64,000 bases of DNA from an uncultured Chloroflexia bacterium (GCA_963715295.1 CAVQRP010000022.1:24-64023); one strand, 5' to 3'; counted from the first letter of the stretch, positions 4,421 to 58,445 are shown. The notes: generated from the sequence alone by a model not told the origin. Made by a program: numbers and translations.

Positions 4421-4490
4421 GGAGCTGCGCTGCGTGCAGGAGATGGCGCGCTGCCTGGGTGAGCTGCGCGAGGGCCGCTGGCCGAAGTAG
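4421..4490 (+). pseudogene. 3'-terminal relic of a paralog of 3632..3883
   Basis: gagctgcgctgcgtgcaggagatggcgcgctgcctgggtgagctgcgcgagggccgctggccgaagtag (ELRCVQEMARCLGELREGRWPK*) parallels the last ~70 nt of 3632..3883 (ELHCVQEMARCLGELKAGRWPR*). There is no upstream coding continuation. Confidence 0.55.
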
Positions 4491-4536
4491 GGCCGCGGCC
4501 AGCCCAGGCAGTGCGGTGGACTGCTCGACGGGCGAC

Positions 4537-5034: not shown

Positions 5035-5191
5035 GTTGTGCCTCCATGTCGGCGGGCCGGGTTCGCCAGTGGCTCAGCACGGTCCTGAGCGGCCATGGTC
5101 GGCGGGCCGTGCGTCGTCGCCTCCCGCTACCTGGATGAGCCAGTGGAAGGCCTGGGTGGTTCCATCTTCGTCGCGTCGCTACTCTGCGTCC

Positions 5192-5389
5192 ATGGCCGAC
5201 CACGACGCTGAGATGGACGCCATCCTCGAGCTGCTCGAGGATGCAGGCCTCGTCGAGCAGTACACCAACGACGAGGGCAAGGAGGCCATGCGCCTCACGC
5301 CCGATGGCGCCCGTGTAGCGCGGCGGATGGCGATGAGCGACGACCCGGAGGCGATGCTGAACGCGCTGCTGGCGAGTGGCGGGGGATAA
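5192..5389 (+). CDS. 65-aa mini winged-helix-like protein (MxDHDAEMDA family, copy 2)
   Basis: ATG at 5192 in ORF 4994..5389: MADHDAEMDAILELLEDAGLVEQYTNDEGKEAMRLTPDGARVARRMAM. A hairpin repeat starts 2 nt after the stop. Confidence 0.6.
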   Translation: MADHDAEMDAILELLEDAGLVEQYTNDEGKEAMRLTPDGARVARRMAMSDDPEAMLNALLASGGG

Positions 5390-5390
5390 C

Positions 5391-5420
5391 AAGAGGCCCG
5401 CCCCTCACGGGACGAGCCTT
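5391..5420. repeat. GC hairpin repeat copy
   Basis: AAGAGGCCCGCCCCTCACGGGACGAGCCTT. Confidence 0.7.
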
Positions 5421-5478: not shown

Positions 5479-7103
5479 CTACTTCAGCTCGAAGTAGGCC
5501 TTGATGAACGAGCCATCGTCGGTCGAGACCTTGACGACGAAGCACTCGCCGGCCTTCGCCTTGGCGGTCTTCCAGTTGTAGACGAACTGGCCGTCGGCGT
5601 AGCGCAGGCTCGTGTCGCCGGTCTCCGTGAGCTCCTCGTCGCGGATGTCCTCCGACTCGTCGTCGATCGCGCCGCATGTCCCTCGACGTCGCCTTGAGCG
5701 ACTCGACGACCGCGGGGTCGGTCAGCTCGGTCGAGCCAGCGAAGACGCGGAACTTGAGCGGCACGGTCGAGCCAGCCTTGACGCGGTTCAGCACGCCATC
5801 CATGTTGACCGGCTTGAAGAAGCCCTCGAGCGTCCAGGCTGTCACCGTGTACGTCGCCGTGGCGGTGCCCTTGTTCCCCGCGTTGTCGAACGCCTTGGCC
5901 TTGACGGTGTGCGCACCAACGGAGGTGTCGTAGTCCACGACCTCACAGCTCCCGTCGAGCCCTGACAGGGCATCACTGGCGTCGCAGGTCGGTTCGGCGG
6001 GAACGGAGCCGAACACGTAGCTGGCCCCATCGGCCGGGCCACCGATCAGGCTCACGGTCGGGTCCGTCTTGTCGATCTTGACAGTCCTGGACGCCTGGCC
6101 GGTGTTTCCCGCGAGGTCCGAGCAGGATGCCGTGAGATCGTTGACGCCCTCGTCCGTATCAGCGGAGAGGTCGGTGCGCTTCTTGCAGTTGTCGTTGTCG
6201 ATGCCAGAGCCGCCGGTGTTGTCCGTCCAGTTCCAGTAAACGGTCACGTCGGTGTTGTTCCAACCCGCGCTGTTCTTGGCCGGGTCCTGGGTCGGGCTCG
6301 CCGTCGGAGCCTTGTCGTCCGTGGGGCAACCCGAGCCGGTGTAGTCGTCGCCCGAATTCCACGTGAGGTCCTTCGTGCAGCCGTTCGGGTCACGGAAGTG
6401 GAACGTGTAGGTCCCGGCGAGCAGATCCATGGTGGGCTTGATGAAGTAGCGGGAGTCCCCCGTCGGGCCACCGTACGAGATCTGGTTCGGCCAGGCGAGC
6501 GTGACCGTCGCCGTCTTCCACGTCAGCGTCTTGTTGGCATTCGGCATCGTCACGCTGCTCTTGACGTCGGTCGTGCTCTGGTACCGCATCTCGACCGAAT
6601 ACGTCCCCGGGAAGAACTCCGCGGAGGTCGTTCCACCGGCGTCCTGTTGCCCCACCCGGGAAGTTCCACGTCCCGAAGGCGGCATTGATGCCATAGCGAG
6701 CCGTGGCACCGGCCAATGGGTCACCATCGGCAGACTCGATCGCCAGTGTCAGCTGGTGGGTCTTGAAATCGAAGGTCGGGTCTGTCTGGATGTTCTGGGT
6801 GACGTGCGCGCTCGTCGTGTTGTTGTACGTCGTCCAGATCTCCAGGTCGGTCGTCGTGTCGGGGAACTCCATGTACTTGCAGCTGGTGGTGCCATCGACG
6901 GTGTTGGAGAAGTAGTAGGTGCTCCCAAGCTTGTACCACGTCGTACCCGGGACCAGCGCGTTGCCAGCGCTGTCCTCGATACAGACGTCGACGCGGATCG
7001 GATCGGCAGCCGCAACAGGACTGGCCGCCCCGATCGCGAGGAGCTGTGCCGATGCGAGCGCGGCCCCCGTGAGAAAGACTCCGCTCTTGCGGATCAGGCC
7101 CAT
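5479..7103 (-). CDS. large secreted cell-surface protein: paralogous N-terminal beta modules, Ig-like region, C-terminal PLKF...YNWKT (PxKF-type) module; 2 or more frame switches
   Basis: GGAGG RBS precedes the ATG at 7103 and signal peptide MGLIRKSGVFLTGAALASAQLLAIGAASPVAAA (ORF 6390..7133). It continues in ORF 5420..6727 (TWKTATVTLAWPNQISYGG, KIDKTDPTV, GSTVPLKFRVF). The last 60 aa are in a third frame (TGDTSLRYADGQFVYNWKTAKAKAGECFVVKVSTDDGSFIKAYFELK*). Confidence 0.8.
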
Positions 7104-7362
7104 TTCATTCCCTCCTTCACTCGACGGAGGCACATCTCGTGATCCTCCGCGATTCGTCCGTCCGCGACTGTCAGACCGGGCGCGTTGCCGCGGGCGGAAT
7201 GATCGGGCACTAGTACGAACGTACCCCCGTCGGGGGCACTATCAGGTCAAGTAGAGGCCACGCAAGGCCGACGCTGTCAACGCGTGCGGGGACTCGCGGT
7301 GCTTGGTGGTGCGACCTGGCACCGTGCCCCCGGCCCGGCATATCCGCGCCGTGAACGCGAAA

Positions 7363-7450: not shown

Positions 7451-9287
7451 TCACCGTGGCCGCGGAGCGAGGTCGTAGTACGTCAGCGGGAAGCCGTCAT
7501 TGAACTGGCACTTCCAGTTCCCAGGGAGCAGCTGCATCCCTGCGTGAATGACGTCACCCAGCTGCCGATTCGCACACTTGGTCGCGGTGCCCGTGAGGGA
7601 GACGACCGAGCCGGTCTGGAAGACGACAGGAGTCGAGATGTCCTGGGTCTTCTCCTGGTGATCCCGTTGTAGGTCATCTTGAACTTGTACGACCCCGGGG
7701 CGAAGACTTCGAATTTCACGTTACCGTTGCTGTTCGTGGTCCCGCACGCGATCCAGGCTCCGCCGCCCTGCTGACGACATCGCCACCGTCAAGTCGGGTC
7801 ACCGACGTCGTCGATCAGCTTGATCGTGGCCTCCACGGTGCCGAAGGTGAAGATGGAATGGGTTGGCTGGTCGAAGATCTGGTCTCGGACCGTTGTGATA
7901 GCTGATGCGCACCTGGGTGTTGCCCACCGGACCACCGTCCAGCAGCTTGTACGCCACGCCGTCTGCGTCCGTGTTGCCCATCGACAGCCACGAGCCGCCA
8001 GGGGCGACCTCGGCCTTGGCGCCCTCGATCGGCGCGCCTGTGGAGTCGTTGACGTTGGCGACGACCATGCTCTTGGTGTAGGTCTCACCTGCGCCCCACT
8101 GAGAGGTTGACCCTGGGACCCGAACGGAAGTGGAACTTGTAGTCCCCGGCGAGCAGGTTCATCGTGGGCTTGTTGAACCAGCGTGCGTCGCCGCTCCCGC
8201 CGCCGTACGAGATGTTCTTGCTGTAGTACAGGGTGACCGTTGCCGTCTTCCACGTGAAGGTCGTGTCCGCGTCGGGCACGTCCTTGCTTTCCTTGGCCTG
8301 TGCCGTGCCCTGGTACTGCATCTCGAACGAGTAGGTACCGGGGAAGACCTCCGCGGATGACTTGCCATTCCCGTCGGTCAACCCGCCTGGCCACCACCAC
8401 GTCGTATACGTGCCGTTGCGACCGTAGCGAGCCTTGCCACCCGACAGCGGATCGTTGTCGGCGGTGTTGAGTTCCAGCGTCACATTCCGCGTCCGGAACT
8501 GGTACACGGAGTTCGATGCCGCGTTCTGAGTGACGGTCTGGATCGTGTTGTTGAACTTCATCTCGTTGGTGAGGTTCCCCACCAGACCGGGCAGTGCGTA
8601 CGCGAGGATGCCGGGGGCCGATGGCCTCATTGCCCGTGGAGCCGGGCGCGTACGCCCAGTAGTTCGTCTTGTAGCGTGCGGTCCCGCCGTCGAGTGGGTC
8701 GCCGTTGCTGTCGATCAGTCGCAGCGCGATGAGGCTGCGCGTGAAGCTCTTGCCGGGACCGTCCGCCAGCGGCCAGGTGAGCCCGAGCCGCCCCGATGCA
8801 CCACCCGTTCCGTCGAGCCGGAAGCGAACCTCGCTGCCGCCGAAGAGCTCCATCGACGGCTTGGAGAAGAACGCTGCGTTCCCCCTCCGCCCGACGTGCC
8901 GCCGAAGGCGATACTGCCACTGTACTGGAGGGTGACCAGCGTCGAGTAGAAATCGACAGTCTGGTCGCCGTTGATGGTGGCCGACTGGTGTCCACTGGAG
9001 TAGTTGTTTCGGACAATCCAGAGCTCCACGTCGGTACCAGAGTTGACAACCTTGGAACGGCAGCCGTTGCTGGCGGAATCGGCGACCCAGTAAGTGGTAC
9101 TGCCAATCTTCATCGTCACCTGGGCCGCACCCAGATTGACCTGGGCGCCAGTGCTGTCATGAGCGCAGACCGTGACCGTGTACTGCTCGACAGCGGATGC
9201 TGGCGCTGCAAGCGCCAAGGTCATCAACGATGCGAGTAGCAGGCCGCCTCCCTGCCGCCAGCGGTTCGTACGGAATGGGTTCCCCAC
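7451..9287 (-). pseudogene. large secreted surface protein, paralog of 5479..7103 N-terminal half; needs 6 or more frame switches
   Basis: GGAGG RBS precedes the GTG at 9287 and signal peptide MGNPFRTNRWRQGGGLLLASLMTLALAAPASA. Fragments lie in ORFs 8715..9287, 7789..8853, 8085..8630, 7799..8068 and 7483..7719. Repeated DSNGDPLDGGTARY / ADNDPLSGGKARY / DSTGAPIEGAKAEV modules are present. TFTWKTATVTLYYSKNISYGGGSGDARWFNKPTMNLLAGDYKFHF closely matches gene 5479..7103. The final frame ends NDGFPLTYYDLAPRPR*. Confidence 0.7.
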
Positions 9288-9396
9288 GGGATCCCTCCTT
9301 CTCGCCCTGGAAGGGGCGGCCCTGACCGCCTCTCTCGACCACTCCGTCCCACGGCGAACGCGGTGGGGTCCAGGGTCTTGCAGGGCACGTTACGTA

Positions 9397-9424
9397 ATCA
9401 TACCTATTCCCATGGTGTGGTCAA
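9397..9424 (-). promoter_or_regulatory. sigma-70-type promoter candidate for 7451..9287 (TTGACC-16-TATGAT)
   Basis: The minus strand reads TTGACCacaccatgggaataggTATGAT in a conspicuously AT-richer patch, about 100 nt upstream of the GTG at 9287. Confidence 0.45.
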
Positions 9425-9546
9425 GTGCGGTTGAGCGGGGTCTGGATGGGTCGCGGGGGACCTTCGCCCCCTGAGTCGCTAGGCCGGGTGCCCGGTCAGG
9501 GCAGAAGGGCGAGGCAGCCCGGGCAGGTACGCGCGGCCGATCGCTT

Positions 9547-9574
9547 CCGCGCCCACGGAGAGCATCTAACTGGG
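9547..9574 (+). repeat. degenerate inverted copy of the tRNA-Arg-like 5' segment
   Basis: CCGCGCCCACGGAGAGCATCTAACTGGG on the plus strand mirrors GGCGCCC..GAGCATCTGACTTCGG on the minus strand, with the D-loop deleted. It can pair with 9633-9667. Confidence 0.35.
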
Positions 9575-9627
9575 CATGTTTCGTGAGATGCCCCACGCTC
9601 GCTAGCACGCCGCATAGACGCGGATAG

Positions 9628-9667
9628 TCCGAAGTCAGATGCTCTGATCCACTGAGCTACGGGCGCC
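9628..9667 (-). pseudogene. tRNA-Arg(UCG)-like 5' half (acceptor 5' strand, D-arm, anticodon stem 5' strand and loop); no T-arm or 3' acceptor
   Basis: The minus strand reads GGCGCCC GT AGCTCAGTGGATCAGAGC A TCTGA CTTCGGA, then diverges (CTATCCGCG...). No GGTTCGA-type T-arm is found downstream. Confidence 0.55.
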
Positions 9668-9952
9668 GGTTTCACGCTCAGAATGAGCGTCCAAGTCGTG
9701 GTCCGGGTTAGCACGTCGTCTGTAGAGCGAACAAGTCGGTGAGCTTGTACCCGCACCGGAGACGCCGAGGCGATGAGCCGGAACCTGACCACGGACGCAA
9801 GTATCGCATCCCTCGGCATCCGTGCCGATGCCGTCAGCTTCAGGTTCGAGGCGTGATGCCAGACTTGCGGACGACCCGATGATCTGCAGCGGGTGTCCGT
9901 CGCCCGCGATCCCAAGCTTCCGCGGGGCGCGCGGACGCGTCCTGGCCCGCCT

Positions 9953-32746: not shown

Positions 32747-33145
32747 ATGCTGGATCTGTTCCGCATCCTGCTGGCCGCGCTGCTGGCCATGCACGGCCTG
32801 CTCCATCTGATCTGGTTCCTGGCAGCCTGGACATCTGTCCGCACCGGTGTGCGCGACGGGACCTGGATCCTGCCCGGCAGTGTCACCATCCGCAGCCATG
32901 TCGGCAAGGTCACCGGTGCACTGGCGCTGCTGGCGGTCGGTGTCTTCTGCTTCGCCGCCCTCGGGCTCGCGGCAAAGCAGCCGTGGTGGGCCGGCTGGGC
33001 CGAGGTCGGCGTCTTCGTGTCCTTCGGCGCCGTCGTGCCATGGCTGCGCCAGTCGCCGCGATCGACGGCCTCGACAGCCTTCGTCACCGACATCGTGCTC
33101 ATGTTCGTGCTGGCGTTGGATCTGAGCGTTGACGTCACGGCGTAG
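32747..33145 (+). CDS. membrane protein (132 aa, 4 TM segments)
   Basis: Intact, strongly hydrophobic ORF. Confidence 0.6.
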   Translation: MLDLFRILLAALLAMHGLLHLIWFLAAWTSVRTGVRDGTWILPGSVTIRSHVGKVTGALALLAVGVFCFAALGLAAKQPWWAGWAEVGVFVSFGAVVPWLRQSPRSTASTAFVTDIVLMFVLALDLSVDVTA

Positions 33146-33248
33146 CCAGGCGTCCGCGCGCGCCGGCGCCGGCATGTCGCCAAGCGCGATGAACGGGTAC
33201 ACTCGCCTTCGCTGACGGTGTCCGCGCGCGGCGCGCGACACGCGGCAT

Positions 33249-33325
33249 GGTGGCTATAGCTCAATCGGCAGAGCATCGGATTGTGGCTCCGAAGGTTACG
33301 GGTTCAAGCCCCGTTAGCCACCCCA
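33249..33325 (+). tRNA. tRNA-His (anticodon GUG) with G-1 and encoded CCA
   Basis: Manual cloverleaf: G-1; acceptor GTGGCTA/TAGCCAC; D-arm GCTC-AATCGGCA-GAGC; anticodon arm TCGGA-TTGTGGC-TCCGA; variable loop AGGTT; T-arm ACGGG-TTCAAGC-CCCGT; discriminator C; CCA. Confidence 0.95.
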
Positions 33326-33329
33326 CCTC
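33315..33329 (+). repeat. 15-bp direct repeat, left copy (tRNA-His 3' end, TAGCCACCCCACCTC)
   Basis: Exact match to 37400-37414. Confidence 0.85.
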
Positions 33330-33340
33330 CCCTCGTGGAT

Positions 33341-33369
33341 GTGGCCCTCCGTTCTATTCTGAGGGCCAC
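33341..33369 (+). terminator. hairpin immediately after tRNA-His
   Basis: GTGGCCCTC-cgttctattct-GAGGGCCAC forms a 9-bp stem. Confidence 0.5.
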
Positions 33370-33481
33370 TTTCTGGTCGGCCAGGTCGCCCTACTGTCGA
33401 CATCGAGCAACGGGCGCCGGCTCGCGGACCCGACTAGACCGGGACGATTACTGGCGCCTGTCCGGAGCCGCTCCACGACAC

Positions 33482-33510
33482 GAGGCCCGCCCCTCGCGGG
33501 ACGGGCCTCG
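33482..33510. repeat. GC hairpin repeat copy (distant member of the 321-5470 family)
   Basis: GAGGCCCGCCCCTCGCGGGACGGGCCTCG is identical in its core to the 2886-2920 copy. Confidence 0.8.
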
Positions 33511-33908
33511 AACACCAAGCGCACCATGCTTGTGCTCTACAACTGATGGGCGCTCTCATCTGCCAAGAGTTCCCCGCCCCGGATGCGGGCGCCCGACCGG
33601 AGCTGCTCGCTGCGCGGCTACGATGCCGCCGAGGCTGACGCTGGAGCGGCCAGCTGCTCCACGTAGGTGGAGGCGTCGAGGTCGCTGTAGGCGATGACGA
33701 GGCTCGAAGGCTCTGGCGGCGGTTGGACCACCGGGCGCTCAAAGCCGAGAGCGATCGAGGAGCTCGGTTGTCCCTGCCGCCCACCAGTCGACGGCAGGCA
33801 TCGAAGACAAGCCCTGCTCACACTCACCGCAACGAAGATCGAAGAGACCAGGCCCTTCCCCGGCTCAATAGAGTAGATGCCACGCACAGGCATCGAGGGG
33901 GAGCCCTG

Positions 33909-34466
33909 ATGCAGATGGAGATGCGCGATCTGGTCGATGCGGCCAGGCACGGCGACCGGGAGGCCTTCGAGGCTCTGGTCCGTGCCGGCTCGGGGCGTCT
34001 CTACGCCATCGCCTACCGCGTCCTTCGCGACGTGGACCTCGCGAATGACGCCCTCCAGGAGGCGCTCGTGAGGATCTGGGACGACCTGCCCGCGCTGCGC
34101 GACCCCGACCGCTACGACCCCTGGACCTACCGCATCACCTGCCGGGCCTGCTATCGCGTCGCCAGGCGCGAGCGGCGCGCGCCCGTGGCGGCGCTCGTCG
34201 AGCCGCTGCCCCCGGAGTGGTCGGCGTTCGAATCCGAGATCGCCGATCACGATGAGATGGAGCGCGGCTTCCGACGTCTGTCACCAGAGCACCGAGCCGT
34301 GCTCGTCCTCCACTACTACCTGGGGCTGACGATCGGCGAGGTCGCCGAGGCGCTCCGGATCGCGCCGGGGACCGTGGGCTCCCGCCTGCACTACGCCATG
34401 CGCAGTCTGCGGGCGTCGCTGGAGTCGGAAGCACGAAGCACCGAAGCGATGGAGCGATCGCGATGA
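33909..34466 (+). CDS. ECF (sigma-70 family) RNA polymerase sigma factor
   Basis: From the ATG at 33909 in ORF 33723..34466. Region 2: LYAIAYRVLRDVDLANDALQEALVRIW. Region 4: LSPEHRAVLVLHYYLGLTIGEVAEALRIAPGTVGSRLHYAMRSL. Confidence 0.9.
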   Translation: MQMEMRDLVDAARHGDREAFEALVRAGSGRLYAIAYRVLRDVDLANDALQEALVRIWDDLPALRDPDRYDPWTYRITCRACYRVARRERRAPVAALVEPLPPEWSAFESEIADHDEMERGFRRLSPEHRAVLVLHYYLGLTIGEVAEALRIAPGTVGSRLHYAMRSLRASLESEARSTEAMERSR

Positions 34467-35146
34467 CGCGTGAACAGGACCTCCAGCGCCGCCTGGTCGA
34501 CTGGCTGAACGATGGGCCGGTCGCCTCGCCGACCGAGGTCGTCGACGAAGCCATCGAGCGAACAGTGGGACGACGGCAGCATCACCCGCTCTGGGCCTGG
34601 CTGCTCAAGCCACTGGACCGGGTACGTGCCGGCGACGAGACGCGAGTCGTGGTGCTGGTTCTGGCGCTCACGATGCTGGCGGCCCTGGCCATCGGCGTGC
34701 CGCTGGCGGGCGGGACGCGACCGGCGCCCGAGATGGATCCCTCCAGCGTCCTGACGGTCACCGGGGCTACCGAGGTCATCAGCGAGTCGGAGCTCGACGG
34801 TGTCTTCGAGCGGCTCGAGCGTGTCGACGTATCCGATCCCCGGGTGCGTGGCGAGGCACGACAGGTCATGCACGTCGACGCGGCGCCCGGCGCCGGGCTG
34901 CAACGCTCCACCGGAGTGATGCGCCTGGAGAACGAATGGGGCACCTGGGAAGGCACCATCCACGGTGTTCGCTACCCCGACGGTTCGGAGCTCGAATACG
35001 GCTGGCTGAAAGGCCACGAGACCTACGAGGGCTTCAGCTACTTCCATTCCACACTAGGCCATCCCGCTGAAACGGGACGGACGGTCGAGGGGACCATCTG
35101 GCCAGGTGAGCCGCCCCCGGCGCCCGACCCGTCGTTGCTGCCTTGA
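34463..35146 (+). CDS. anti-sigma-like single-pass membrane protein with extracytoplasmic DPR/ENxWGxW/YEG/WPG domain
   Basis: Intact 227-aa ORF with a 4-nt ATGA overlap with the sigma gene. It has a cytoplasmic N-terminus, TM segment VVVLVLALTMLAALAIGVPLAG, and a C-domain homologous to 35216..35806. There is no HxxxCxxC zinc motif. Confidence 0.7.
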   Translation: MTREQDLQRRLVDWLNDGPVASPTEVVDEAIERTVGRRQHHPLWAWLLKPLDRVRAGDETRVVVLVLALTMLAALAIGVPLAGGTRPAPEMDPSSVLTVTGATEVISESELDGVFERLERVDVSDPRVRGEARQVMHVDAAPGAGLQRSTGVMRLENEWGTWEGTIHGVRYPDGSELEYGWLKGHETYEGFSYFHSTLGHPAETGRTVEGTIWPGEPPPAPDPSLLP

Positions 35147-35185
35147 TCCGCACGGGCCCGCGGACACGGCAGGACTACCGAGCCG

Positions 35186-35213
35186 CACGGCGGCGCACGT
35201 CGATGCCGCCGTG
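35186..35213 (+). terminator. 9-bp-stem hairpin between the anti-sigma-like gene and its secreted paralog
   Basis: CACGGCGGC-gcacgtcgat-GCCGCCGTG ends 2-17 nt before the candidate starts of the next gene. It may act as an attenuator or terminator. Confidence 0.4.
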
Positions 35214-35215
35214 AT

Positions 35216-35806
35216 ATGAGGAGCAATGAGATGCGATCAACACGAGCGTCCTTCGGGATCATCCTGACCTTGTTCCTGCTGGCCCTGCCCATCGGTGCGA
35301 CGGGCCAGTCATCCGCTGAGGAGCCAGTGGACGACAGCGAGGCTACCGGGCCCGTGTACGTGACATGGTCCGGTGACTTCGCAGGGTTCCTCGACGTGCC
35401 CGGGGAGCCACAGCAGTTCCCATGGGGCAGCCGGGCGTACCATGGAAACCGCGCCACCCAGACCTCCGAGGATCCGCGCATCAGCGGCGACTTCACCGTC
35501 GTGTACCTTGGTGACGGCCCATGGCCGGCCCAGGCCGGTGAGTCCAGTCGCTTCACATCACTGGTGCGCATCGAGAACGACGACGGCGCCTGGCAGGGAC
35601 CGCTCACTGACGTGTTCCTCCCAGACCAAGTGTGGATCCAGTATGGCTGGCTGACCGGCGAGGGCGCGTACGAGGGCCTGAGCTTCTTCACGAGCTTCCG
35701 CGGCCACACCGATGCCGCGCACCACAACGGCGAGGGCGTGATCTGGCCGGGCGGTCCACCGCCCGAGCCGGACGTGGCACTGCTGGAAGCCGCACTGGAC
35801 CGCTGA
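35216..35806 (+). CDS. secreted protein, paralog of the anti-sigma sensor domain (probable start ATG 35231)
   Basis: AGGAG RBS precedes the ATG at 35231, with signal peptide MRSTRASFGIILTLFLLALPIGATG. SEDPRISGDF...VRIENDDGAWQGPL...YGWLTGEGAYEGLSFF...GEGVIWPGGPPPEPD aligns with the 34463..35146 C-domain. Confidence 0.75.
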   Translation: MRSNEMRSTRASFGIILTLFLLALPIGATGQSSAEEPVDDSEATGPVYVTWSGDFAGFLDVPGEPQQFPWGSRAYHGNRATQTSEDPRISGDFTVVYLGDGPWPAQAGESSRFTSLVRIENDDGAWQGPLTDVFLPDQVWIQYGWLTGEGAYEGLSFFTSFRGHTDAAHHNGEGVIWPGGPPPEPDVALLEAALDR

Positions 35807-36074
35807 CCCTGCCGCCACCGGCGGTCACGAGGTCCATATGGAGCGGGCAACATGGCAACAGAGGCGCCGCGCTGCCCGCTCCTGAGCAGCCCCACCGACG
35901 AGTTCGAGCCCCCGTGGCCCCCACACCATCACCGGATGCTGACGGGGTGACGATGGACTCTTGCACACCGCGCGATCCGACAGGCACGCTGCACGGGAGC
36001 CGAGCGATGACGTTCGGCTCGTCGACGACGGCTGTGGTCGACCGTGTGGGGCGACTGGCACGGAGGAGTAGGCG

Positions 36075-37253
36075 ATGACCTGGGAGCAGGCTGAAGAACG
36101 ATCCACACCGGTGCTGCGCTGTCCGCTGTGCCAGGGCACCGGGTTCGACACGCAACAGGGTCGTCTCGATTCGCGCTGGGGCATCACGAGCCACAAGGTC
36201 GTGATGAAGATCTGCCAGCGCTGTGGGCTCGTGCTCCAGTTCTCTGCCGGGCGGGGCATCTTCGACTTCGCACTAGCGCGCCCAACGGTTGCATCGCCCA
36301 GCGCGACCATCGGCCGCCCGAAGCCATCGCCTCGACAGGCTGGAGCCCCCCGCATCACCGAGATGTTCAGCGCCACCAGGACCGTGGTTGTCAGCGTCAT
36401 CGTGGCGTTGCTCAGTAGCGTCCCATTCACCAGCGCACAGGTCTCTCCGTCGCCCGGAATGCCGGGTGTCCCCGTGTCGCCTTCGCCCAGTGCGGCCCAG
36501 ATCCACTGGGTGACCCCGGTCGTGGACCTTGCCGCCGACGCTTTCTCGGTGGAGGCGAACGGTCTGGAGTTCACGACCGAGGGGGCTCCGCTCGGAGTCG
36601 GCTCCGACCCCGGCGGCCCCGACTACTGGACGCTGGAGGCGGAATGGCTTGAGCAGGGATCGGAACAGCGCCTCTACATGTATTTCGGCTCGGACGGCAC
36701 CGACTGGTGGGTCGACGAGATCCGCACCCGAGACGGCTACGATCCGGCTGAGTGGATCTACGCCTACGGGCCATTCTTGCGAACGCCGTTGGGCGAAGCC
36801 TACGAGGGTGACGTCCGCATCGACCTGCTCGGTGAGGGTCGGCCTGGCGACCGGAGCAACAAGGTAGCCGGCGTTCTTGCGATCGACGGGATGCACCTCG
36901 AGGTGCATCCGTTGATGCTTGCGGACATCGCTGCCATCCCGATCGACGGTGGCAAGGCGGCGACGAAGGACCCGTTCCGCAAGGGTGGACCGCTCCATTG
37001 CAGCGGCATCCTGCTGCTCCCTCCGGCCGAAGCGCACGAGCGCCTCCTCGAGAAGGGCTATCGCGTGTCCTACCGGCTCGATCCCGGAGCGGGAGTGGAC
37101 ATCGACCCGACCGTGCCTCCGGCAGGCGTCATCGAGGACGCTGCTGTCGACAGCTACGGCAACCTCGTCCTGTTCGTCGTCGGGCCCGAGTCGTCCTACC
37201 AGCCAACGGCGAAGCTACCGAGGGACTGCAGGCAAGACAGCGACGAGGGATAG
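36075..37253 (+). CDS. zinc-ribbon, TM segment and extracytoplasmic-domain protein (392 aa)
   Basis: Intact ORF: N-terminal LRCPLCQGTGF...CQRCG, TM segment TRTVVVSVIVALLSSVPFTSA, and a Pro/Ser linker. The alternative reading is two genes, with the second starting at ATG 36363. Confidence 0.65.
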   Translation: MTWEQAEERSTPVLRCPLCQGTGFDTQQGRLDSRWGITSHKVVMKICQRCGLVLQFSAGRGIFDFALARPTVASPSATIGRPKPSPRQAGAPRITEMFSATRTVVVSVIVALLSSVPFTSAQVSPSPGMPGVPVSPSPSAAQIHWVTPVVDLAADAFSVEANGLEFTTEGAPLGVGSDPGGPDYWTLEAEWLEQGSEQRLYMYFGSDGTDWWVDEIRTRDGYDPAEWIYAYGPFLRTPLGEAYEGDVRIDLLGEGRPGDRSNKVAGVLAIDGMHLEVHPLMLADIAAIPIDGGKAATKDPFRKGGPLHCSGILLLPPAEAHERLLEKGYRVSYRLDPGAGVDIDPTVPPAGVIEDAAVDSYGNLVLFVVGPESSYQPTAKLPRDCRQDSDEG

Positions 37254-37399
37254 CCGCCGCCAAGCGGCATCACCGACCCCACTGTGGTGGTGCCGGTGAT
37301 CCTTGAGACGCTTCGCACCGCCCAGCCTGCGGTGGGACGAAACCACCGACGAGCTGCTGCTGGTCTTGTTGGGGTTCGTAGGCCCGCGCGGCTCACAGC

Positions 37400-37414
37400 T
37401 AGCCACCCCACCTC
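37400..37414 (+). repeat. 15-bp direct repeat, right copy (TAGCCACCCCACCTC)
   Basis: Exact copy of the tRNA-His 3' end at 33315-33329, 4085 bp downstream. The flanks diverge immediately on both sides. Confidence 0.85.
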
Positions 37415-37425
37415 TCTTTCACGAG

Positions 37426-37644
37426 CTATGCGCTGACGTTGCCGCGCGGCTTGTCCAGGCTGCCCGATGCTGCCGGCTCCAGCACCCCGGGCTCCAGCCA
37501 CAGGCCGCGCCGGTCAACCTCGACCCGCAACGCCAGGCGCAACATGCGCCAGTAGGGTGGCTGCGCTTCATGGCGGTCGTGGGCGAAACGGGTCAGCTCT
37601 TCGTCACTGAACGAGCGCAGGAACCGCTCGAAGCTCTTGGTCAT
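37426..37644 (-). CDS. hypothetical 72-aa protein
   Basis: C-terminal piece of ORF 37426..38706 from the ATG at 37644 with a GGGAGA RBS: MTKSFERFLRSFSDEELTRFAHDRHEAQPPYWRMLRLALRVEVD. Confidence 0.4.
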   Translation of the reverse strand: MTKSFERFLRSFSDEELTRFAHDRHEAQPPYWRMLRLALRVEVDRRGLWLEPGVLEPAASGSLDKPRGNVSA

Positions 37645-37830
37645 CGTGTCTCCCTGGCCGCGTGCGTTCGGATGTCGCGGGCTTCGATGGTGCTCTCGGC
37701 ATCCACGCATGGCTACTGCCCTTCGCGGCAATCCATACCCGGCTTGATTGCTGCAGCCGCGCAGCGCAGCACGGCGTACCATCGAACGACGCAGCCATGC
37801 CGCCCCGCAGGGGCACTGGAGGGAGACCCG

Positions 37831-38937
37831 ATGATCGACCGTACCTCGCATACCGACGCCGAGCGCGAAGCGCGGGACAAGCCCGCTGTCGAAGGCCACG
37901 ACGCCCAGCCCCACTACCTGGCGGCGCCAGACCGCTACCAACGCATGGCATTTCGCTACACCGGCAACAGCGGCCTGCAGCTGCCGTCGATCTCGCTCGG
38001 CCTGTGGCACAACTTCGGCGATGACGTCCCATTCGCTCGCCAACGCGCCATCATCCGCAAGGCCTTCGACCTGGGCATCACCCAATTCGACCTGGCCAAC
38101 AACTACGGCCCCCCGTTCGGCTCCGCCGAGGAGAACTTCGGGCGCATCTTCGCCAAGGATCTGAGGCCGTACCGCGACGAGCTGGTCATCACCACCAAGG
38201 CCGGCTGGCACATGTGGCCGGGGCCGTACGGCTGGACCGGCTCGCGCAAGCACGTGCTGGCGTCGCTCGACCAGAGCCTCCAACGCATGGGGCTCGACCA
38301 CGTCGACATCTTCTACTCGCACCGCATCGATCTCGATACACCGCTCGAAGAGACGATGGCTGCCCTGGCCACGGCCGTCCACCAGGGCAAGGCCCGCTAC
38401 GTCGGCATCAGCTCCTACTCGCCGGCGCGCACACGCAAGGCTGCTGCCATCCTGCGCGACCTCGGGACGCCGCTGCTCATCCACCAGCCCAACTACTCCA
38501 TGTTCAACCGCTGGATCGAAGCCGAGCTGCTGGACGTGCTGGCTGCCGAAGGCGCCGGCTGCATCCCCTTCTCCCCCCTTGCGCAGGGCCTGCTCACGAG
38601 CAAGTATCTTGACGGCGTACCGGCGGGCAGCCGGGCCTCGCAAGGCAAATCGCTCTCGGACGACATGCTCAACGAGGCGACCCTCGAGCGCATCGGCGCC
38701 CTGCATGACATCGCCCAGCGCCGCGGCCAGTCGCTGGCGCAGATGGCCATCCTTTGGACCCTGCGCGACGCTCGAGTGTCCTCCGCCCTCATCGGAGCCA
38801 GCTCGCCGGAGCAGCTGGAGGACAGCGTCGGGGCTCTCGCCGGCGCGCCGTTCAGCCAGGAAGAGCTGGCTGAGATCGACCGCTACGCGCAGCCCGGCGA
38901 GGGCGTCGACCTCTGGAACGTCTCCGCGGGGCTGTAG
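37831..38937 (+). CDS. aldo/keto reductase (YghZ/Gpr-like, Kv-beta type)
   Basis: GGAGGGA RBS precedes the ATG at 37831 in ORF 37303..38937. LGLWHNFG, FDLANNYGPPFGSAEENFG, ITTKAG, IFYSHR and RYVGISSY are present. Confidence 0.9.
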   Translation: MIDRTSHTDAEREARDKPAVEGHDAQPHYLAAPDRYQRMAFRYTGNSGLQLPSISLGLWHNFGDDVPFARQRAIIRKAFDLGITQFDLANNYGPPFGSAEENFGRIFAKDLRPYRDELVITTKAGWHMWPGPYGWTGSRKHVLASLDQSLQRMGLDHVDIFYSHRIDLDTPLEETMAALATAVHQGKARYVGISSYSPARTRKAAAILRDLGTPLLIHQPNYSMFNRWIEAELLDVLAAEGAGCIPFSPLAQGLLTSKYLDGVPAGSRASQGKSLSDDMLNEATLERIGALHDIAQRRGQSLAQMAILWTLRDARVSSALIGASSPEQLEDSVGALAGAPFSQEELAEIDRYAQPGEGVDLWNVSAGL

Positions 38938-39762
38938 CTACGGCGCCAGGGTGCCGAAGAACACCTGCCAGGCGAGGATCGTCTTGGCGAACAGGCTCAT
39001 GAACATGTAGGTCTTCTCGCCGACCAGGTAGTCGCGCCAGCGTCCGACCTTGCCGTACTGCAGGATCATGGTGATGGCGAAGACGTTGAAGGCCACGAAG
39101 AGCGAGACGAAGATGACGATGACGAAGCCGGGGATAGGCGCGGCACCCGGCTCGACGGCGGCTGACCACAGCGCGATGCCGATGACGATCCAGGGCACGA
39201 TGCCGGCGATGACACCGAAGATGTAGTGGTTCCATTGCGTCTTCTCGCGCCCCTGGTTGGCTGACTCCATCGACCAACCGAAGAGGTTCATGGCGGCGTT
39301 GATGCCGAAGATGGCCACCAGCGTCCCGATCTCCTGGATCCCGGACAGTGCGGCGATGACCACGATCATGACGCTGGAGCTCAGCGCGTACTCGATCCAG
39401 CGCATGGGCTGGATGTGGTCGCCCAGACGCCGCTCGTACCAGCCCCGCAGTGGCCAGGCCAGCAACGCGTGCGCGATCGCGCTCATGAAGAAGAACAGCG
39501 CCACGGCCGGGCCGATGGGCAGCTCGAAGAGCGGGCTCTGCGCTGGCACCAGCGTGTCGGCAGCCGTGTCGAAGGTGAGGTAGCTGGTAACGACGGGACT
39601 GGTGACGAGGGGATCACGGGCGAACGAGAGGGCCAGGATGACCAGGCCCTGGACGGCATGGAGGCCCGCCAGCACGGCATTCCAGCGGAACAGGCTGTGC
39701 GCCCGATCCTCGGCGATAGGCTCCGCCGTCGCCGGGGCGACAGCTGGCGTGGCTGCGGTCAT
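38938..39762 (-). CDS. heliorhodopsin (7-TM retinal-binding protein, HeR family)
   Basis: Intact 274-aa ORF. FRWNAVLAGLHAVQGLVILAL, MSAIAHALL, MRWIEYALSSSVMIV (counterion Glu position), GIVPWIVIG and YLVGEKTYMFMSLFAKTILAWQVFFGTL (Lys at the Schiff-base position) parallel the prototype heliorhodopsin 48C12 as I remember it. Confidence 0.9.
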   Translation of the reverse strand: MTAATPAVAPATAEPIAEDRAHSLFRWNAVLAGLHAVQGLVILALSFARDPLVTSPVVTSYLTFDTAADTLVPAQSPLFELPIGPAVALFFFMSAIAHALLAWPLRGWYERRLGDHIQPMRWIEYALSSSVMIVVIAALSGIQEIGTLVAIFGINAAMNLFGWSMESANQGREKTQWNHYIFGVIAGIVPWIVIGIALWSAAVEPGAAPIPGFVIVIFVSLFVAFNVFAITMILQYGKVGRWRDYLVGEKTYMFMSLFAKTILAWQVFFGTLAP

Positions 39763-54191: not shown

Positions 54192-54440
54192 AGGTCCGAT
54201 GCTACACCGCCACCACCGTCGGCCGCGCGCGGTTCCGACACGCCGCCGAAGGGTGCGTCCGCCGGTCCGACCCACCCGATGGTCACCCGGACCCCGAGAC
54301 GCATGCCCCACATCGAACATGGCCGGGGCCTTCCTAGCATCGCGATGCGGTCGTTCCCCAAGCCGGTGCCCACCGGATGTTCGGGACCTGTCGAGCGCCG
54401 CCACGAGCACGGGAGAGACGACGCTGTGCCTGCCATCGCG

Positions 54441-55625
54441 ATGCGGACGAGCCCAGTCGCATTTCACCGGCGCCTGCTGATCGGCGTCCTTGCGTTCGTC
54501 CTGCTGTGCTCCTATGGGGCCGCCGTCGCCACCCCGGTCGAAGCCCGCAACTGGACGCGGGAGATCGCCGCAACGCGAGCGAGCCAGATCTACTACGAGA
54601 ACGCCATGCGAGCAGCCGACAGCGAGGTGCGCTCCCTCTCGCGGGCCCGCAAGCAGACGCAACGCACCCTCAGGAAGGTCCGCGTCAACCTGCGTGCTGC
54701 CATCGCGCGGCGGGGTGAGACGAAGCGCCAGCTGCAGGCGACACGGGCACAGCTGGGAGTCGCACGGGCCTCCCTGACGGCCGCCTCGTTCGAGACCCCG
54801 CCACCGCCTGACACGGCCACGGCCATCCTGGCGCTCACCGGACCCGAGGACGACCAGGCAGAACCCGAACGCGCTCTCGTACTGGCGAGCGACCGCGGCC
54901 TGGGCATCCCTGCTGTGTCCGCCATCCAGGTGGCCCAGCCGCTTCGGACCGAAGCGACCGTCGGCGACGTCCTGACCATCGAACGCCAGCTCACGAAGCA
55001 ACAGCGGGCCTTCGGCAAGGCACGCCAGCGCGCACAGCGGGTCGCTCGCGCGGCGCGCATCAAGGGCAGGAGCCTCGCGGCTATCAAGGCGCGACAACGT
55101 AGCGCCACGGCGCGTCGCGAAGGCGCTGAGGCCGCCCTCGGCAGCCGCATCCTGGCGATGTCGCAGCTGGCACAGCGTCGAGTGGCCAAGAAGACGAAGG
55201 TACGCCCCGGCGTCAACAGCGGCTTCACCTGGCCCACCCGGGGTCGACTCAGCCAGGGCTACGGCTGCACCGGCTACCGGCTCAACCCGCCACGTGGGTC
55301 GTGTCGCCACTTCCACGATGGCATCGACGTCAGCGGCTACCGTGGCACTGCCATCCGCGCCGCCGCCGTGGGTGTCGTCAGCTACATCGGCTGGAACCCC
55401 TGGGACCAGGAAGGGCGCGCCTTCATGATCGTCGTCGCCCACCCCGGTGGCTACGAGACCCTGTACGGGCACGCGCTCCCCAGCCGGCAGGTCCGCGTGG
55501 GACAGCTGGTGCGCCGCGGCCAGGTCATCGGCTACATGGGCAGCACCGGGCGCAGCACGGGGGTGCATCTCCACTTCGAGCTCCGCCGCGGACGTACGAC
55601 GCTCAACCCGCTGGCCTTCCTGTAG
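54441..55625 (+). CDS. coiled-coil M23 family metallopeptidase (copy 1)
   Basis: From the ATG at 54441 (alternative 54345) in ORF 54279..55625. TM/signal segment [19 protein letters not shown], Arg/Gln-rich coiled coil, then [23 protein letters not shown] and [14 protein letters not shown]. Confidence 0.85.
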
Positions 55626-55733
55626 GCGCGAGCTCGGCTACATCGGCGCGACCCCCGCTACACCGTTGGTACCCCCGGGGGTCCCACCCTCGGGTGGTGC
55701 CGAGCGGCACCGCGCCTCGCGAGCATCCGGTCC

Positions 55734-56810
55734 ATGGTCCGAGCCAACCGAGCGCGCAGCCGGGTCGAGGTCGCCTGGCGCCTGCTGATCCCGCTGTTGT
55801 CATTGGCGCTGTTGTTCAGCCTCGAAGGCGTGGCCGCCACCCCGGTCGCTGCCGGCGGAGCCAGCACCGCCGACACAGCCATCCGTCAGCGGCAGCAGCG
55901 GGCCGAGGCCACGATGCTGCGCGCCGACAGGCAGGTCAAGCGACTACAGCAGCAGCGGCGCCAGCACTCCCGGCGACTGAACGCGGCCAAGCGTCAGCTG
56001 GACAAGGCCATCGACCGACGCGATGCCGTGCGCGACAGGCTCGACCGAGCCCACTCACGGCTCGACGGCGCCGAGTTCGCCTTCGCTCGCAGCGTCAGGG
56101 TCCGGCCCAACCCCAAGGGGACGCAAGCGGTCGACAAGCCGCGTCTGCGCAAGCAGATCCGCACGCTGGAGAAGAAGACCAGGCTGCTGGCGAAGCAGAC
56201 CAGCAAGCTGGAACGCCGGGTCGAACGAACGCGCAGGGTCAAGCAGTCGCGCCTGAAGAAGGTCGGCAAGGCTCGCATCGAAGCGCGCAAGGCCGCCCGT
56301 GAGCGCGCCGAGGACAAGCTCGGCCTGGCCATCAGGCAGATGGTCGAGCTGTCACTTCAGCGGTCCAGCGAGCGCCTGACCCTCGCCTCCGTCAAGGGCT
56401 TCCGCAAGCCGGCCCGGGGCACCATCAGCCAACCCTACGGATGCACCGGCTACGGAACCAACCAGCGACGTGGCGGCTGCCGGCACTTCCACGATGGCAT
56501 CGACATCGCGGCACGGCGCGGCGCGCCGGTGCGTGCCTCGGCCGACGGCTACGTGGCCTACGTCGGCCGCAACCCGTGGGACGTCGGCTCACGCGCCTAC
56601 GTGGTGATCATCGGGCACGCCGGCGGCTACGAGACGATCTACGGGCACCTGCTGCCGCGGCGCCTGGTGCGCGCCGGGCAACGGGTCGAACGCGGCGAGC
56701 TCATCGGCCGCGTCGGCAGCACCGGGCGCAGCACCGGACCGCATGTCCACTGGGAGGTCAGCCGCGACTTCCGCACCCTCGATCCCCGGCGCGCCGGGGG
56801 CTCGTCGTAG
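55734..56810 (+). CDS. coiled-coil M23 family metallopeptidase (copy 2)
   Basis: Intact 358-aa ORF with signal peptide. [23 protein letters not shown] and [14 protein letters not shown] are present. Confidence 0.85.
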   Translation: MVRANRARSRVEVAWRLLIPLLSLALLFSLEGVAATPVAAGGASTADTAIRQRQQRAEATMLRADRQVKRLQQQRRQHSRRLNAAKRQLDKAIDRRDAVRDRLDRAHSRLDGAEFAFARSVRVRPNPKGTQAVDKPRLRKQIRTLEKKTRLLAKQTSKLERRVERTRRVKQSRLKKVGKARIEARKAARERAEDKLGLAIRQMVELSLQRSSERLTLASVKGFRKPARGTISQPYGCTGYGTNQRRGGCRHFHDGIDIAARRGAPVRASADGYVAYVGRNPWDVGSRAYVVIIGHAGGYETIYGHLLPRRLVRAGQRVERGELIGRVGSTGRSTGPHVHWEVSRDFRTLDPRRAGGSS

Positions 56811-56830
56811 CCCTCTGATCTCGCGGGCGA

Positions 56831-58201
56831 CTACGGCAGGTAGGCGTAGGGGTTGACGGGCAGCCAGTCGCCGCCGGCCCAGACCTCGAAATGCAGGTGG
56901 CTGCCGAAGCTACCGCCGGTGTTGCCCATGCTGCCGATGCGCTGACCCTTGCGCACCGTTTGTCCCACGCTCACCGGGTACGTCGCGAGCATGTGCGCAT
57001 AGAGGGTGGAGATGCCGCCGCCGTGGGCGATGACCACGATGAAGGCCGGGTTGTACTCGTACGGGTTCCAGCCGATGAAGGCGACGACACCACTGGCGGC
57101 CGCGTAGATCGGCGTGCCCGAGTTGTTGGCGATATCGATACCGTCGTGGAAATGGGGACACGAGCCGCGGGGCGGGTTGATGTAGTAGTTGGTACAGCCG
57201 TAGCCCTGGCTGATGGAGCCGCGGGTGGGCCAGTCGAAGCGCCCGCTGCTGCCGGTGGGGGCGACGCCGCCGAACTGGGCGCTGGCCCTGGCCTGCATGG
57301 CTGCGACCTTGTTGCGGATGCTGCGCATCAACTGGTTGCGGGCATCCTGCTGCTTCTTGACCATCGCCATCGCCTGCTTCTTGTTCTTGGCGATGCGGAG
57401 GATGGCGGCCTTCTGGCGGTCGCGCGCCTTCTCCGTGCGCGCCTCCAGCTGCAGCAGACGCTGCTTGGCCTGGCGCAGCTGTTCCCGCAGCTCGACGACC
57501 TTCTCCTGGGTATCGAGCGTCTCACGCCGGAGCTGGTCGGTGCGCAGGCGCGTCGAGGTCGTCAGCAGTCGCAGTGAGTCGAGCGCCTGCTGGTCCTGCG
57601 TGATCTGCCGCGCCAGCTGCGCATCCTGCTCCCCGTAGGAGAGGTAGGCCGAGGTGTCGGTGAGCACATCGGAGAAGGATTCGGCCGTGAACACCTGCTG
57701 CAGGAGCGTGGTGTTCTCGGTCCGGTAGGCTTCCGCCAGTCGCAACCCGAGGGCCTGCCGCCGGGCTTTCAGATCCGACTCACCATTGGCCAGCTCCTGC
57801 TCCAGCAAGCCCAGCGTGAAGTCCGTCTGGCGCTGCTCCTCGACCAGTTCCGCGTGTCGTGCCTCGATGCGCTTGAGCCGTTCCTGCACCTTCTCGATGC
57901 GCGCCTTGACCGCTTCCTGGTCGGCGCGGATGTCCTTGAGCTGCTCCGTCGTCTGGTCGAGGTCGCGCTTCGTCTGTGCTTCCTCGGACTTGAGCTGGCT
58001 GACGAGCCGCTCAGACTGCGCGATGGACCTGGTCAGAGCCGCCTGGCGCTCCTTGGCCGCGGCGATCTGGTCCTTGAGGCTGGCAGCCTCGACCGACGGC
58101 GCCGCGATAGACGGGACGGCGAGGATGACGACGAAGAGGAGCACGAACAGTCGGGGCCAAGACACGGCGGCCCCGTGCGCTCGCGCTTTCACGCTTGGCA
58201 C
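56831..58201 (-). CDS. coiled-coil M23 family metallopeptidase (copy 3, EnvC-like; start GTG 58201 or 58192, ORF-track ATG 58303)
   Basis: ORF 56831..58303. TM/signal segment WPRLFVLLFVVILAVPSIAAPSVEA, a long coiled coil, then GCTNYYINPPRGSCPHFHDGIDI and GNTGGSFGSHLHFE. Confidence 0.85.
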   Translation of the reverse strand: MPSVKARAHGAAVSWPRLFVLLFVVILAVPSIAAPSVEAASLKDQIAAAKERQAALTRSIAQSERLVSQLKSEEAQTKRDLDQTTEQLKDIRADQEAVKARIEKVQERLKRIEARHAELVEEQRQTDFTLGLLEQELANGESDLKARRQALGLRLAEAYRTENTTLLQQVFTAESFSDVLTDTSAYLSYGEQDAQLARQITQDQQALDSLRLLTTSTRLRTDQLRRETLDTQEKVVELREQLRQAKQRLLQLEARTEKARDRQKAAILRIAKNKKQAMAMVKKQQDARNQLMRSIRNKVAAMQARASAQFGGVAPTGSSGRFDWPTRGSISQGYGCTNYYINPPRGSCPHFHDGIDIANNSGTPIYAAASGVVAFIGWNPYEYNPAFIVVIAHGGGISTLYAHMLATYPVSVGQTVRKGQRIGSMGNTGGSFGSHLHFEVWAGGDWLPVNPYAYLP

Positions 58202-58445
58202 GATCTCTCTATGCAACTCCCACTTGCTGCCGTACGCAGCACCCCGGGCACGGGGGATGACCGAACACGGCACTCGGTCGTTCAAGGCATGGTACTCCGC
58301 CACTGGCAGGGCCGCAAACGCAGGTGGCCACCCCGGGATCGCCTAGTACGTTCGAGCCGGTGCGTCGTGACACCACAGCAGGCACGCTCAGCGGCATGAC
58401 CACCTCCGAGCCACGCTCGCTCGCGCCGCGAACAGGCGTTCGTAC

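Follow-up and report, generated by a model that had tools for sequence, protein, structure and literature searches.

A 15-bp direct repeat of the tRNA-His 3' end borders a lineage-specific segment in a hypervariable slot of a Chloroflexota genome

A segment of about 4.1 kb beside the tRNA-His gene of an uncultured Chloroflexia bacterium was analyzed within a stretch of 64,000 nucleotides (nt), one strand of contig CAVQRP010000022.1 (positions 24-64023; GCA_963715295.1), hereafter called the window, in which all positions are counted. The segment was bounded by an exact 15-bp direct repeat of the tRNA 3' end, and occupied a slot between conserved anchor genes that was filled with different genes in related genomes. 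With about even confidence, it is read here as the scar of an integration into a hypervariable tRNA-His slot, since decayed and remodelled, and not as a demonstrable mobile unit. A first-pass annotation, made by a model from the sequence alone, had described the segment as an integrase-less islet between attL and attR sites (33315-37414), either decayed or mobilised in trans. Its account of the repeat and of the missing integrase was borne out, as was the break in gene order that it had set as a test; the attL/attR reading was supported only in part, and the cargo proved not to be a single unit.

The tRNA-His gene and its repeated 3' end

An intact tRNA-His (GTG) gene was located at 33250-33325 on the plus strand, by ARAGORN as the single tRNA of the window and by Rfam with 69.6 bits (RF00005). 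Over 33000-38000, Rfam displayed neither a second tRNA-like match nor any further RNA family. The 15-mer TAGCCACCCCACCTC was found exactly and in direct orientation at 33315-33329 (copy 1) and 37400-37414 (copy 2), both on the plus strand, with the orientation and on the side of the tRNA that an integration would require. No third copy was present in the window on either strand with up to two mismatches allowed, nor was there a reverse-orientation match of comparable length to the tRNA end.

Copy 1 was made up of 11 terminal tRNA nucleotides (the 7-nt 3' strand of the acceptor stem, the discriminator C and CCA) and 4 nt of trailer, and was bordered by GTTCAAGCCCCGT on the left and CCCTCGTGGATGTGG on the right. 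Copy 2 lay in a 172-nt spacer where two genes converge, one of them a 72-amino-acid (aa) gene whose stop codon was 11 nt away. It was bordered by GCGGCTCACAGC on the left and TCTTTCACGAGCTA on the right, the left border ending in ..GGCTCACAGC and the right one starting with TCTTTCACGAG, after which the 72-aa gene followed. Similarity around the two copies did not extend beyond the 15 nt, as local alignments of their flanks scored like random segments of the window; the flanks thus diverged immediately, as had been noted at first. A longer degenerate tRNA remnant at copy 2 was considered and rejected, the alignment being at random level and no tRNA-like structure being detected around this copy by ARAGORN, Rfam or folding.

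A third-order Markov model yielded an expectation of 6e-5 copies of this 15-mer per window, and of 2e-3 for all 26 15-mers overlapping the tRNA 3' end taken together. Of 55-nt segments drawn at random from the window, 1.7% shared an exact stretch of 15 nt or more, in direct orientation, with another place in it, and 47 exact direct-repeat blocks of at least 15 nt were counted in this GC-rich sequence. The empirical value probably overstates chance, because the tRNA end does not encode protein and has no codon bias. Taken alone, the repeat had a chance of about 0.002-0.02, which is moderately improbable and not extreme; the initial claim of an unlikely chance match holds, without being overwhelming. 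The location of copy 2 adds to this improbability: by our own arithmetic, about 0.6% of chance partners within the 30.7 kb downstream would fall into the 172-nt spacer that closes the non-syntenic stretch on the right, and the product of the repeat probability (about 0.002-0.017) and this value (~0.006) gives a joint coincidence of ~1e-5 to 1e-4. In viral contigs, the 15-mer had 11 matches, nine of which were put down to chance, being unrelated and spread over contigs with a GC content anywhere from 30 to 60%.

These numbers bear directly on the main rival of an integration scar, according to which the 15-mer repeat is a coincidence and the slot turns over by homologous recombination across its anchors, by illegitimate recombination or by deletion, without a site-specific recombinase and with a copy 2 whose past is unconnected to the tRNA. 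The frequency of direct repeats in the window speaks for coincidence; the small joint probability and the likely overestimate in the empirical value speak against it, and overall we regard this explanation as less likely than a scar.

A slot with conserved anchors and differing contents

The locus was compared with about 30 related Limnocylindrales (Chloroflexota) loci. An exact search with the tRNA sequence, using one genome per species, returned seven loci from Chloroflexota/Limnocylindrales metagenome-assembled genomes (L001-L007), all with an identical stretch of 77 nt (tRNA-His and one upstream base), and further loci (L008-L024 and L047-L053) were found through homologues of the left-anchor protein and of the reductase described below. 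No genome of the same species was found in the searched collections, either by exact look-up of the anti-sigma-like protein of the segment or through homologues of the flanking genes, the best of which reached 80% (membrane protein) and 89% (reductase) aa identity.

The left anchor was a 132-aa membrane protein gene (32747-33145, plus strand), which also stands beside tRNA-His in relatives. Its product shared 63-77% aa identity with L001-L005 and L007 (tblastn), had 63 homologues (best 80%), and matched no Pfam or NCBIfam family. The right anchor comprised the 72-aa gene (37426-37644, minus strand), which neighbours the reductase gene in relatives and was 54-73% identical at the aa level in L005 and L016-L024 (tblastn), and the gene of an aldo/keto reductase (37831-38937, plus strand; Pfam PF00248, E 4e-71; L-glyceraldehyde 3-phosphate reductase in database sources). 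To the left of the stop codon of the 72-aa gene, the sequence differed in every relative.

Homology with five relatives ran through tRNA-His and ended at 33341, 16 nt past the CCA (blastn). On the right, nucleotide homology with the closest locus (L005, 81% nt identity over 3.3 kb) began at 37462, inside the 72-aa gene, and protein-level homology reached the stop codon of this gene at 37426, 11 nt past copy 2. Copy 1 therefore ended 12 nt before the left breakpoint and copy 2 at 11 nt from the right anchor. The synteny break expected at these coordinates was thus real, homology stopping at 33341 and resuming at the 72-aa gene.

The window, L005, L016 and L020 all kept both anchors, with three unrelated fillings between them. 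The slot of L005 held a small membrane protein, argG and a J-domain gene (4.15 kb), and those of L016 and L020 held a BTAD/SARP-type regulator with small genes (5.3 and 4.2 kb). In L004, a 132-aa secreted protein occupied the slot and the 72-aa gene was missing. A local rearrangement was rejected, as the slot genes of L005 (argG and J-domain), L006 (methyltransferase) and L004 (132-aa secreted protein) were not found elsewhere in the window. Since the slot genes of relatives differ and none of them occurs elsewhere in the window, the segment is a lineage-specific filling of the slot between conserved anchors.

Conserved flanks with different contents were observed at the strain level as well as at the species level. 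Four loci (L010, L013, L014 and L015) had an identical left-anchor protein and left flanks of 97-98% identity, and lost homology 137-145 nt past tRNA-His, beyond which VanZ, ECF (extracytoplasmic function) sigma pairs or an RHH-PIN pair stood in mosaic order. L047 and L048 shared the same left-anchor protein and diverged 12 nt past the tRNA, with a GmrSD_C gene in L047; L051 and L052 diverged at +35. Divergence in L001, L003, L006 and L007 was placed at +75 to +85, their left flanks being 86-89% identical where shared. The slot beside tRNA-His is a genuine hot spot.

The comparison also bears on the suspicion that faulty assembly of a metagenome contig produced the repeat or its junctions, by a chimeric join at a short shared sequence. 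The source contig (64,033 nt) is known from one record only, which leaves room for such an error. A 15-nt identity is below the usual assembly k-mers, and the order membrane protein, tRNA-His ... 72-aa gene, reductase, heliorhodopsin and SIS was repeated in the independent assemblies L005 and L016, so that an artefact appears extremely improbable.

Evidence for and against site-specific integration

As in the islands collected by Islander, an intact target tRNA stood at one end of the segment and a cognate 3' fragment in the same orientation was found downstream, although a short one (11 of its 15 nt are tRNA). The repeat copies lay at the edges of a non-syntenic stretch, on the appropriate side of the tRNA, and copy 2 was followed within 11 nt by the conserved 72-aa gene, which argues for the order that integration would produce. 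This tRNA end is also used by existing integrases. Two viral contigs with a GC content of 67% (L033, 13-27; L036, 3322-3336) carried a tyrosine integrase ~130 nt from a tRNA-His 3' fragment made up of the T-arm, the acceptor, CCA and CCTC, with the same 15-mer inside; this fragment is likely a phage attachment site in another high-GC host.

Other observations weigh against a clean integration. Copy 1 was followed by native sequence: the next 12 nt, CCCTCGTGGATG, are the tRNA-His trailer of L003 and L005, with a similar one in L016. One-step integration with the crossover in the 15-mer should leave the ancestral trailer behind copy 2, and something further has to be assumed to account for it behind copy 1. 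An empty site, in which tRNA-His and the 72-aa gene would be direct neighbours, had been proposed as a check and was found in none of the relatives, whose slots were all otherwise filled; the nearest genomes were only 80-89% identical at the protein level. An exact 26-nt scan of metagenome contigs with the 15-mer and its right flank returned 0 matches. In 20 relatives, no tRNA-end repeat of at least 13 nt was detected up to 10 kb downstream, and the 15-mer was not found near the 72-aa gene of relatives. Left breakpoints of the relatives were scattered (+12, +16, +35, +45, +75-85, +121 and +137-145), and none of about ten different slot fillings contained an integrase.

The same lack of recombination genes was observed in the window. 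Neither the segment nor any of 50 open reading frames (ORFs) screened across the window encoded an integrase, excisionase, transposase or other recombinase (Pfam), so there was no tyrosine integrase inside the segment as in Islander islands, and the tyrosine integrase of a related genome (L025) had no match in the window by tblastn. The segment consisted of four genes and short spacers with no room for an integrase gene; the spacers (~580, 270 and 170 nt) were too short for a recombinase gene, small remnants being possible. The base composition was the same inside and outside the segment (GC 0.66-0.70), and plasmid and phage collections had no match to 33330-37399.

The cargo itself also appeared native. 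The segment carried the hairpin of the lineage that resembles repetitive extragenic palindromes (REP-like), a copy of which had been listed in the cargo from the start and was present at 33482-33509. The ECF module (33793/33831-35944) recurred with 80-88% nt identity in eight metagenome contigs (L039-L046). Upstream sequence was kept in four of these contigs; their left flanks differed, and the 420-870 nt before the module contained no tRNA. Three quarters of the zinc-ribbon gene, at its 3' side (36355-37280), were found with 87% nt identity in another context in two related loci (L025 and L026), beside DNA homologous to 920-5200 of the window and far from any tRNA-His. The cargo is thus a mosaic of two lineage-native modules that are separate elsewhere in relatives; the segment was bounded by a synteny break as proposed for an islet, and its copies elsewhere were found only as separate modules. 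The ECF modules of L040, L041 and the window were also compared for flanking repeats, and none other than the 15-mer was present.

Several of these results are also what coincidence would predict, namely the native trailer after copy 1, the scatter of breakpoints in relatives, about ten other fillings that lack both a tRNA-end repeat and an integrase, and the compositionally native, mosaic cargo. The repeat is nevertheless taken as a real recombination scar, because a repeat at both edges of the slot is too striking for chance to be preferred.

Possible history of the segment

The segment (33342-37425) is the filling that this lineage has in a slot of Limnocylindrales genomes which begins past tRNA-His and the first part of its trailer and ends at the 72-aa gene, next to the reductase gene. 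It combines a self-contained-looking ECF operon, with its own upstream block and closing hairpin, and, apart from this operon, the gene of the zinc-ribbon membrane protein. Under the preferred reading of a decayed scar, the repeat would be left from a past insertion by a tyrosine-type integrase acting at the tRNA-His 3' end, the integrase gene having since been lost and the junctions remodelled. A recent site-specific event is supported by the existing integrases on this tRNA-His end and by copy 2, which is perfect although neutral; this perfection places the event after the split from relatives that are ~81% identical in the flanking genes. Both the integrase origin of the repeat and the order of the events are what we infer from this pattern.

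Two histories fit the repeat. In the first, the identity between element and target would have run into the trailer for at least 27 nt, and a later deletion would have removed the rest of the right copy together with the remaining native trailer and an older filling. In the second, the 'trailer' of relatives would itself derive from an old family of elements, as their conserved left arm, with short tandem repeats at the end of homology, and tRNA-His and the 72-aa gene would have been direct neighbours at the true ancestral site. Whatever the model, the trailer beyond +16 must have been lost, since the window does not contain it.

A further explanation is that the islet is still functional, with active attL and attR sites, and is excised and moved by a tyrosine integrase whose gene lies outside it, in another part of the genome or on a helper element. 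The perfect identity of the two copies is consistent with it, as are the use of this tRNA-His end by the integrases of viral contigs and the presence of a tyrosine integrase at a strain-variable junction in a related genome (L025). Identity is however limited to 15 bp and no arm-like repeats were found near either copy; the whole unit was never seen elsewhere while its modules occur apart, the metagenome scan with the right junction gave no other copy, and the 50 ORFs screened across the 64 kb include no recombinase. We judge a functional islet quite improbable, and nothing indicates a unit still able to move.

Genes and hairpins of the segment

Gene order was deduced from codon-position GC, Pfam and NCBIfam. 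Past the tRNA, the segment is preceded by the retained 16 nt of the tRNA-His trailer of the lineage, CCTCCCCTCGTGGATG (33326-33341, plus strand), at the last position of which the homology of relatives ends. A hairpin followed by TTTCT stood just past this remnant (33341-33369, plus strand; fold of -24.8 kcal/mol, z -2.5). It is a possible terminator of the tRNA on folding grounds, and was not called by a pattern scan for terminators. The REP-like GC hairpin, GAGGCCCGCCCC-TCGC-GGGACGGGCCTC (33482-33509, no strand assigned; repeat family D2), had a fold z of -4.1.

The ECF module extended from 33793 to 35944 on the plus strand, as a block made of an upstream region, the sigma factor gene, the anti-sigma-like gene, a secreted paralogue and a hairpin. 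Its conserved upstream block (about 33830-33880) included ..AACGAAGATCGAAGAGACCAGGCCCTTCCC... The ECF sigma factor (about 33909-34466, plus strand; 185 aa from an inferred ATG) was identified by the Pfam families Sigma70_r2, Sigma70_r4_2 and Sigma70_ECF and by NCBIfam TIGR02937 (65.1 bits, above the cut-off of 42.9), confirming its early annotation, and displayed sigma-70 regions 2 and 4 without region 3.

The anti-sigma-like gene (34463-35146, plus strand) encodes a single-pass membrane protein of 227 aa and its start overlaps the sigma stop codon (ATGA). The overlap and the hydrophobic segment of the product would fit the anti-sigma role first suggested for it, although no curated anti-sigma family of Pfam or NCBIfam matched the product. 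The third gene (35216-35806, plus strand; 196 aa, hydrophobic signal-like N-terminus) was rightly described as a secreted paralogue of the anti-sigma sensor domain, as it shared 42% identity over 105 aa with the C-terminal (outer) domain of the anti-sigma-like protein (BLASTP, E 3e-23). The module was closed by an inverted repeat or hairpin (35840-35882, plus strand; I14, -31.4 kcal/mol, z -2.7), with an equivalent (I19) in L040. Two tiny coupled ORFs that had been placed at 35852-36071 found no support, the conserved hairpin occupying this spacer.

Compact, and with a conserved upstream block and a closing hairpin, the module is presumably an autoregulated sensor of an envelope or extracellular signal, and the secreted paralogue could modulate the sensor by competing for the ligand or presenting it. 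Like ECF sigma/membrane anti-sigma pairs in general, the module combines Sigma70_r2 and r4 domains, an overlapping single-pass membrane partner and a conserved upstream block. It differs from them by a partner without curated anti-sigma family and by the secreted paralogue of the outer domain within the module.

The last gene of the segment (36075-37253, plus strand) encodes the zinc-ribbon membrane protein of 392 aa, present as first described, with CPLC...CQRC motifs (two CxxC pairs) and a membrane segment. It matched no family of Pfam or NCBIfam. The 280 nt at the 5' end of the gene were unique, and 36355-37280 was homologous to genes in other contexts in relatives. In its protein family, the outer domain is conserved and the cytoplasmic N-termini vary. 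Homologues included P0185 (83% aa identity) and P0186 (78%), and a distant one (P0227) carried the anti-sigma zf-HC2 domain. Like the ECF module, the zinc-ribbon protein could serve as a sensor, a second one of this type in the segment.

An integron-like cassette array was rejected as a description of the segment, with no integrase among the ORFs screened in the window and with the 28-nt GC stem-loop occurring once in it and not at cassette ends.

Comparison with described tRNA-associated islands

In Islander, the regenerated target tRNA and a displaced fragment mark the ends of an island, and an integrase inside is a required filter (PMC4383910). The segment resembles such islands in its intact tRNA, the directly oriented 3' fragment downstream and the lineage-specific content between them. 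It differs from them by the lack of an integrase, by a fragment that covers just 11 nt of the tRNA, by the native trailer, instead of island DNA, after its tRNA, and by the lack of a compositional signal.

The closest described situation is that of the tRNA-proximal hypervariable islands of Prochlorococcus, in which older integrations have left their record as degraded elements and partial tRNAs scattered through the island (bioRxiv 10.1101/2020.12.28.424599). Here as there, the position beside a tRNA is fixed, the content varies between close strains, most fillings lack an integrase, and partial tRNA repeats stand as remnants of older integrations. Unlike in Prochlorococcus, no integrase-carrying element was found at this slot in about 30 loci, the host is a high-GC Chloroflexota and not a streamlined cyanobacterium, and the cargo is regulatory (ECF sigma module) where that of Prochlorococcus consists of nutrient-uptake genes.

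The 'additive' flexible islands of marine bacteria (Alteromonas) lie beside tRNA genes and usually carry integrases or mobile-element genes in at least some strains. The present slot shares with them its conserved flanks, the adjacency to a tRNA and the addition or swapping of cassettes between close strains, and differs from them in that no integrase or mobile-element gene was seen at it.

The feature is an ordinary one of an already known type. If the preferred reading is correct, it is one more case of tRNA genes marking the exchange of accessory genes, with old insertions decaying to short repeats, in a poorly studied and uncultured lineage of freshwater and soil (Limnocylindrales, Chloroflexota). 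Its practical value is modest: the ECF module and the membrane protein are flagged as accessory and lineage-specific, not core. The pattern in relatives is wider, as the slot differs between near-identical strains, an integrase was never seen there, and short tandem repeats stand at the breakpoints.

Trailer repeats in relatives

The tRNA-His trailers of relatives contained short tandem repeats of two kinds, placed exactly at the end of homology between strains or species, and the motifs of these repeats were absent from the window. In one clade (L001, L003, L006 and L007), GAGATTGCTGCG was present twice in tandem after two to four copies of GGAGCGGCAC (+30..+85). In the other clade (L009-L015, L048 and L049), two or three copies of GGCTGTCAGNTN came after three copies similar to GGATCCCGCC (+70..+145). 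These tandem repeats look like protein-binding sites.

In L006, a direct repeat of ~30 nt of the trailer motif (GCGCTGAGCGGCAC..AGAGATTRCTGCGG) was found at 4960-5012 and 7171-7207. It flanked the first cassette beside tRNA-His, a methyltransferase cassette of 2.2 kb, and lay in the trailer and not in the tRNA. L006 is thus a second lineage whose first cassette is bounded by a repeat, which counts in favour of an integration scar and also accords with the history in which the trailer is an element arm. Among 20 relatives, L006 was the only one with such a trailer-motif repeat. L006 (4799-6103) and L007 (6697-8000), bins from the same sample, were 97.5% identical from 58 nt upstream of tRNA-His over at least 1.3 kb, and unrelated further upstream; this shared stretch could stem from a rearrangement, from a transfer in which the tRNA gene was included, or from faulty binning or assembly.

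A more speculative view would make the Limnocylindrales tRNA-His 3' end and its repeat-bearing trailer the docking site of a cassette-exchange system without resident integrase, in which modules (ECF operons, toxin-antitoxin and defence genes) would be swapped by a recombinase encoded elsewhere. The 15-bp repeat and the 30-nt repeat of L006 would then be footprints of this system, and the 12-nt tandem repeats its protein-binding sites. We regard such a system as improbable.

Neighbouring genes and other variable regions

Heliorhodopsin and SIS-domain genes lay downstream of the reductase gene in the window. The heliorhodopsin gene (38938-39762, minus strand; Pfam E 1.7e-89) was 96% identical at the aa level to that of L005. 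Its position was taken by adenosine deaminase in L020-L022, by other genes in L016-L018 and by nothing in L004. In L019 and L024, an 8-kb oligopeptide ABC transporter/hydantoinase cluster separated the 72-aa gene from the reductase gene, which means that the right anchor itself is split in some lineages.

Apart from its copy at 33482-33509, the REP-like hairpin was distributed over 313-5419 of the window, and occurred in L002, L004, L025 (14616-14650) and L026 (6245-6281). The region at 920-5200 of the window, with small paralogous genes and hairpins, aligned with L025 (11797-14650) and L026 (3425-7886) at 75-89% nt identity, in many pieces and inverted. This region and the zinc-ribbon gene (36075-37253) are 30 kb apart in the window and adjacent in L025 and L026. 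These two loci, 99.6-99.8% identical, lost homology exactly at the REP-like hairpin, whose centre was inverted between them, and the tyrosine integrase gene of L025 started 185 nt beyond it. L025 also displayed an insertion of 1.13 kb (8636-9765) relative to the near-identical L026, with an 8-nt junction overlap; it overlapped a called 438-aa gene without family match and may be an insertion sequence.

Other repeated sequences of the window included a perfect 21-nt tandem duplication (27-68), three paralogous M23 peptidase genes side by side (54279-58303), and a 244-nt repeat within genes of Ig-like-domain proteins (6392-6635 and 8124-8367), the two copies of which were 73% identical.

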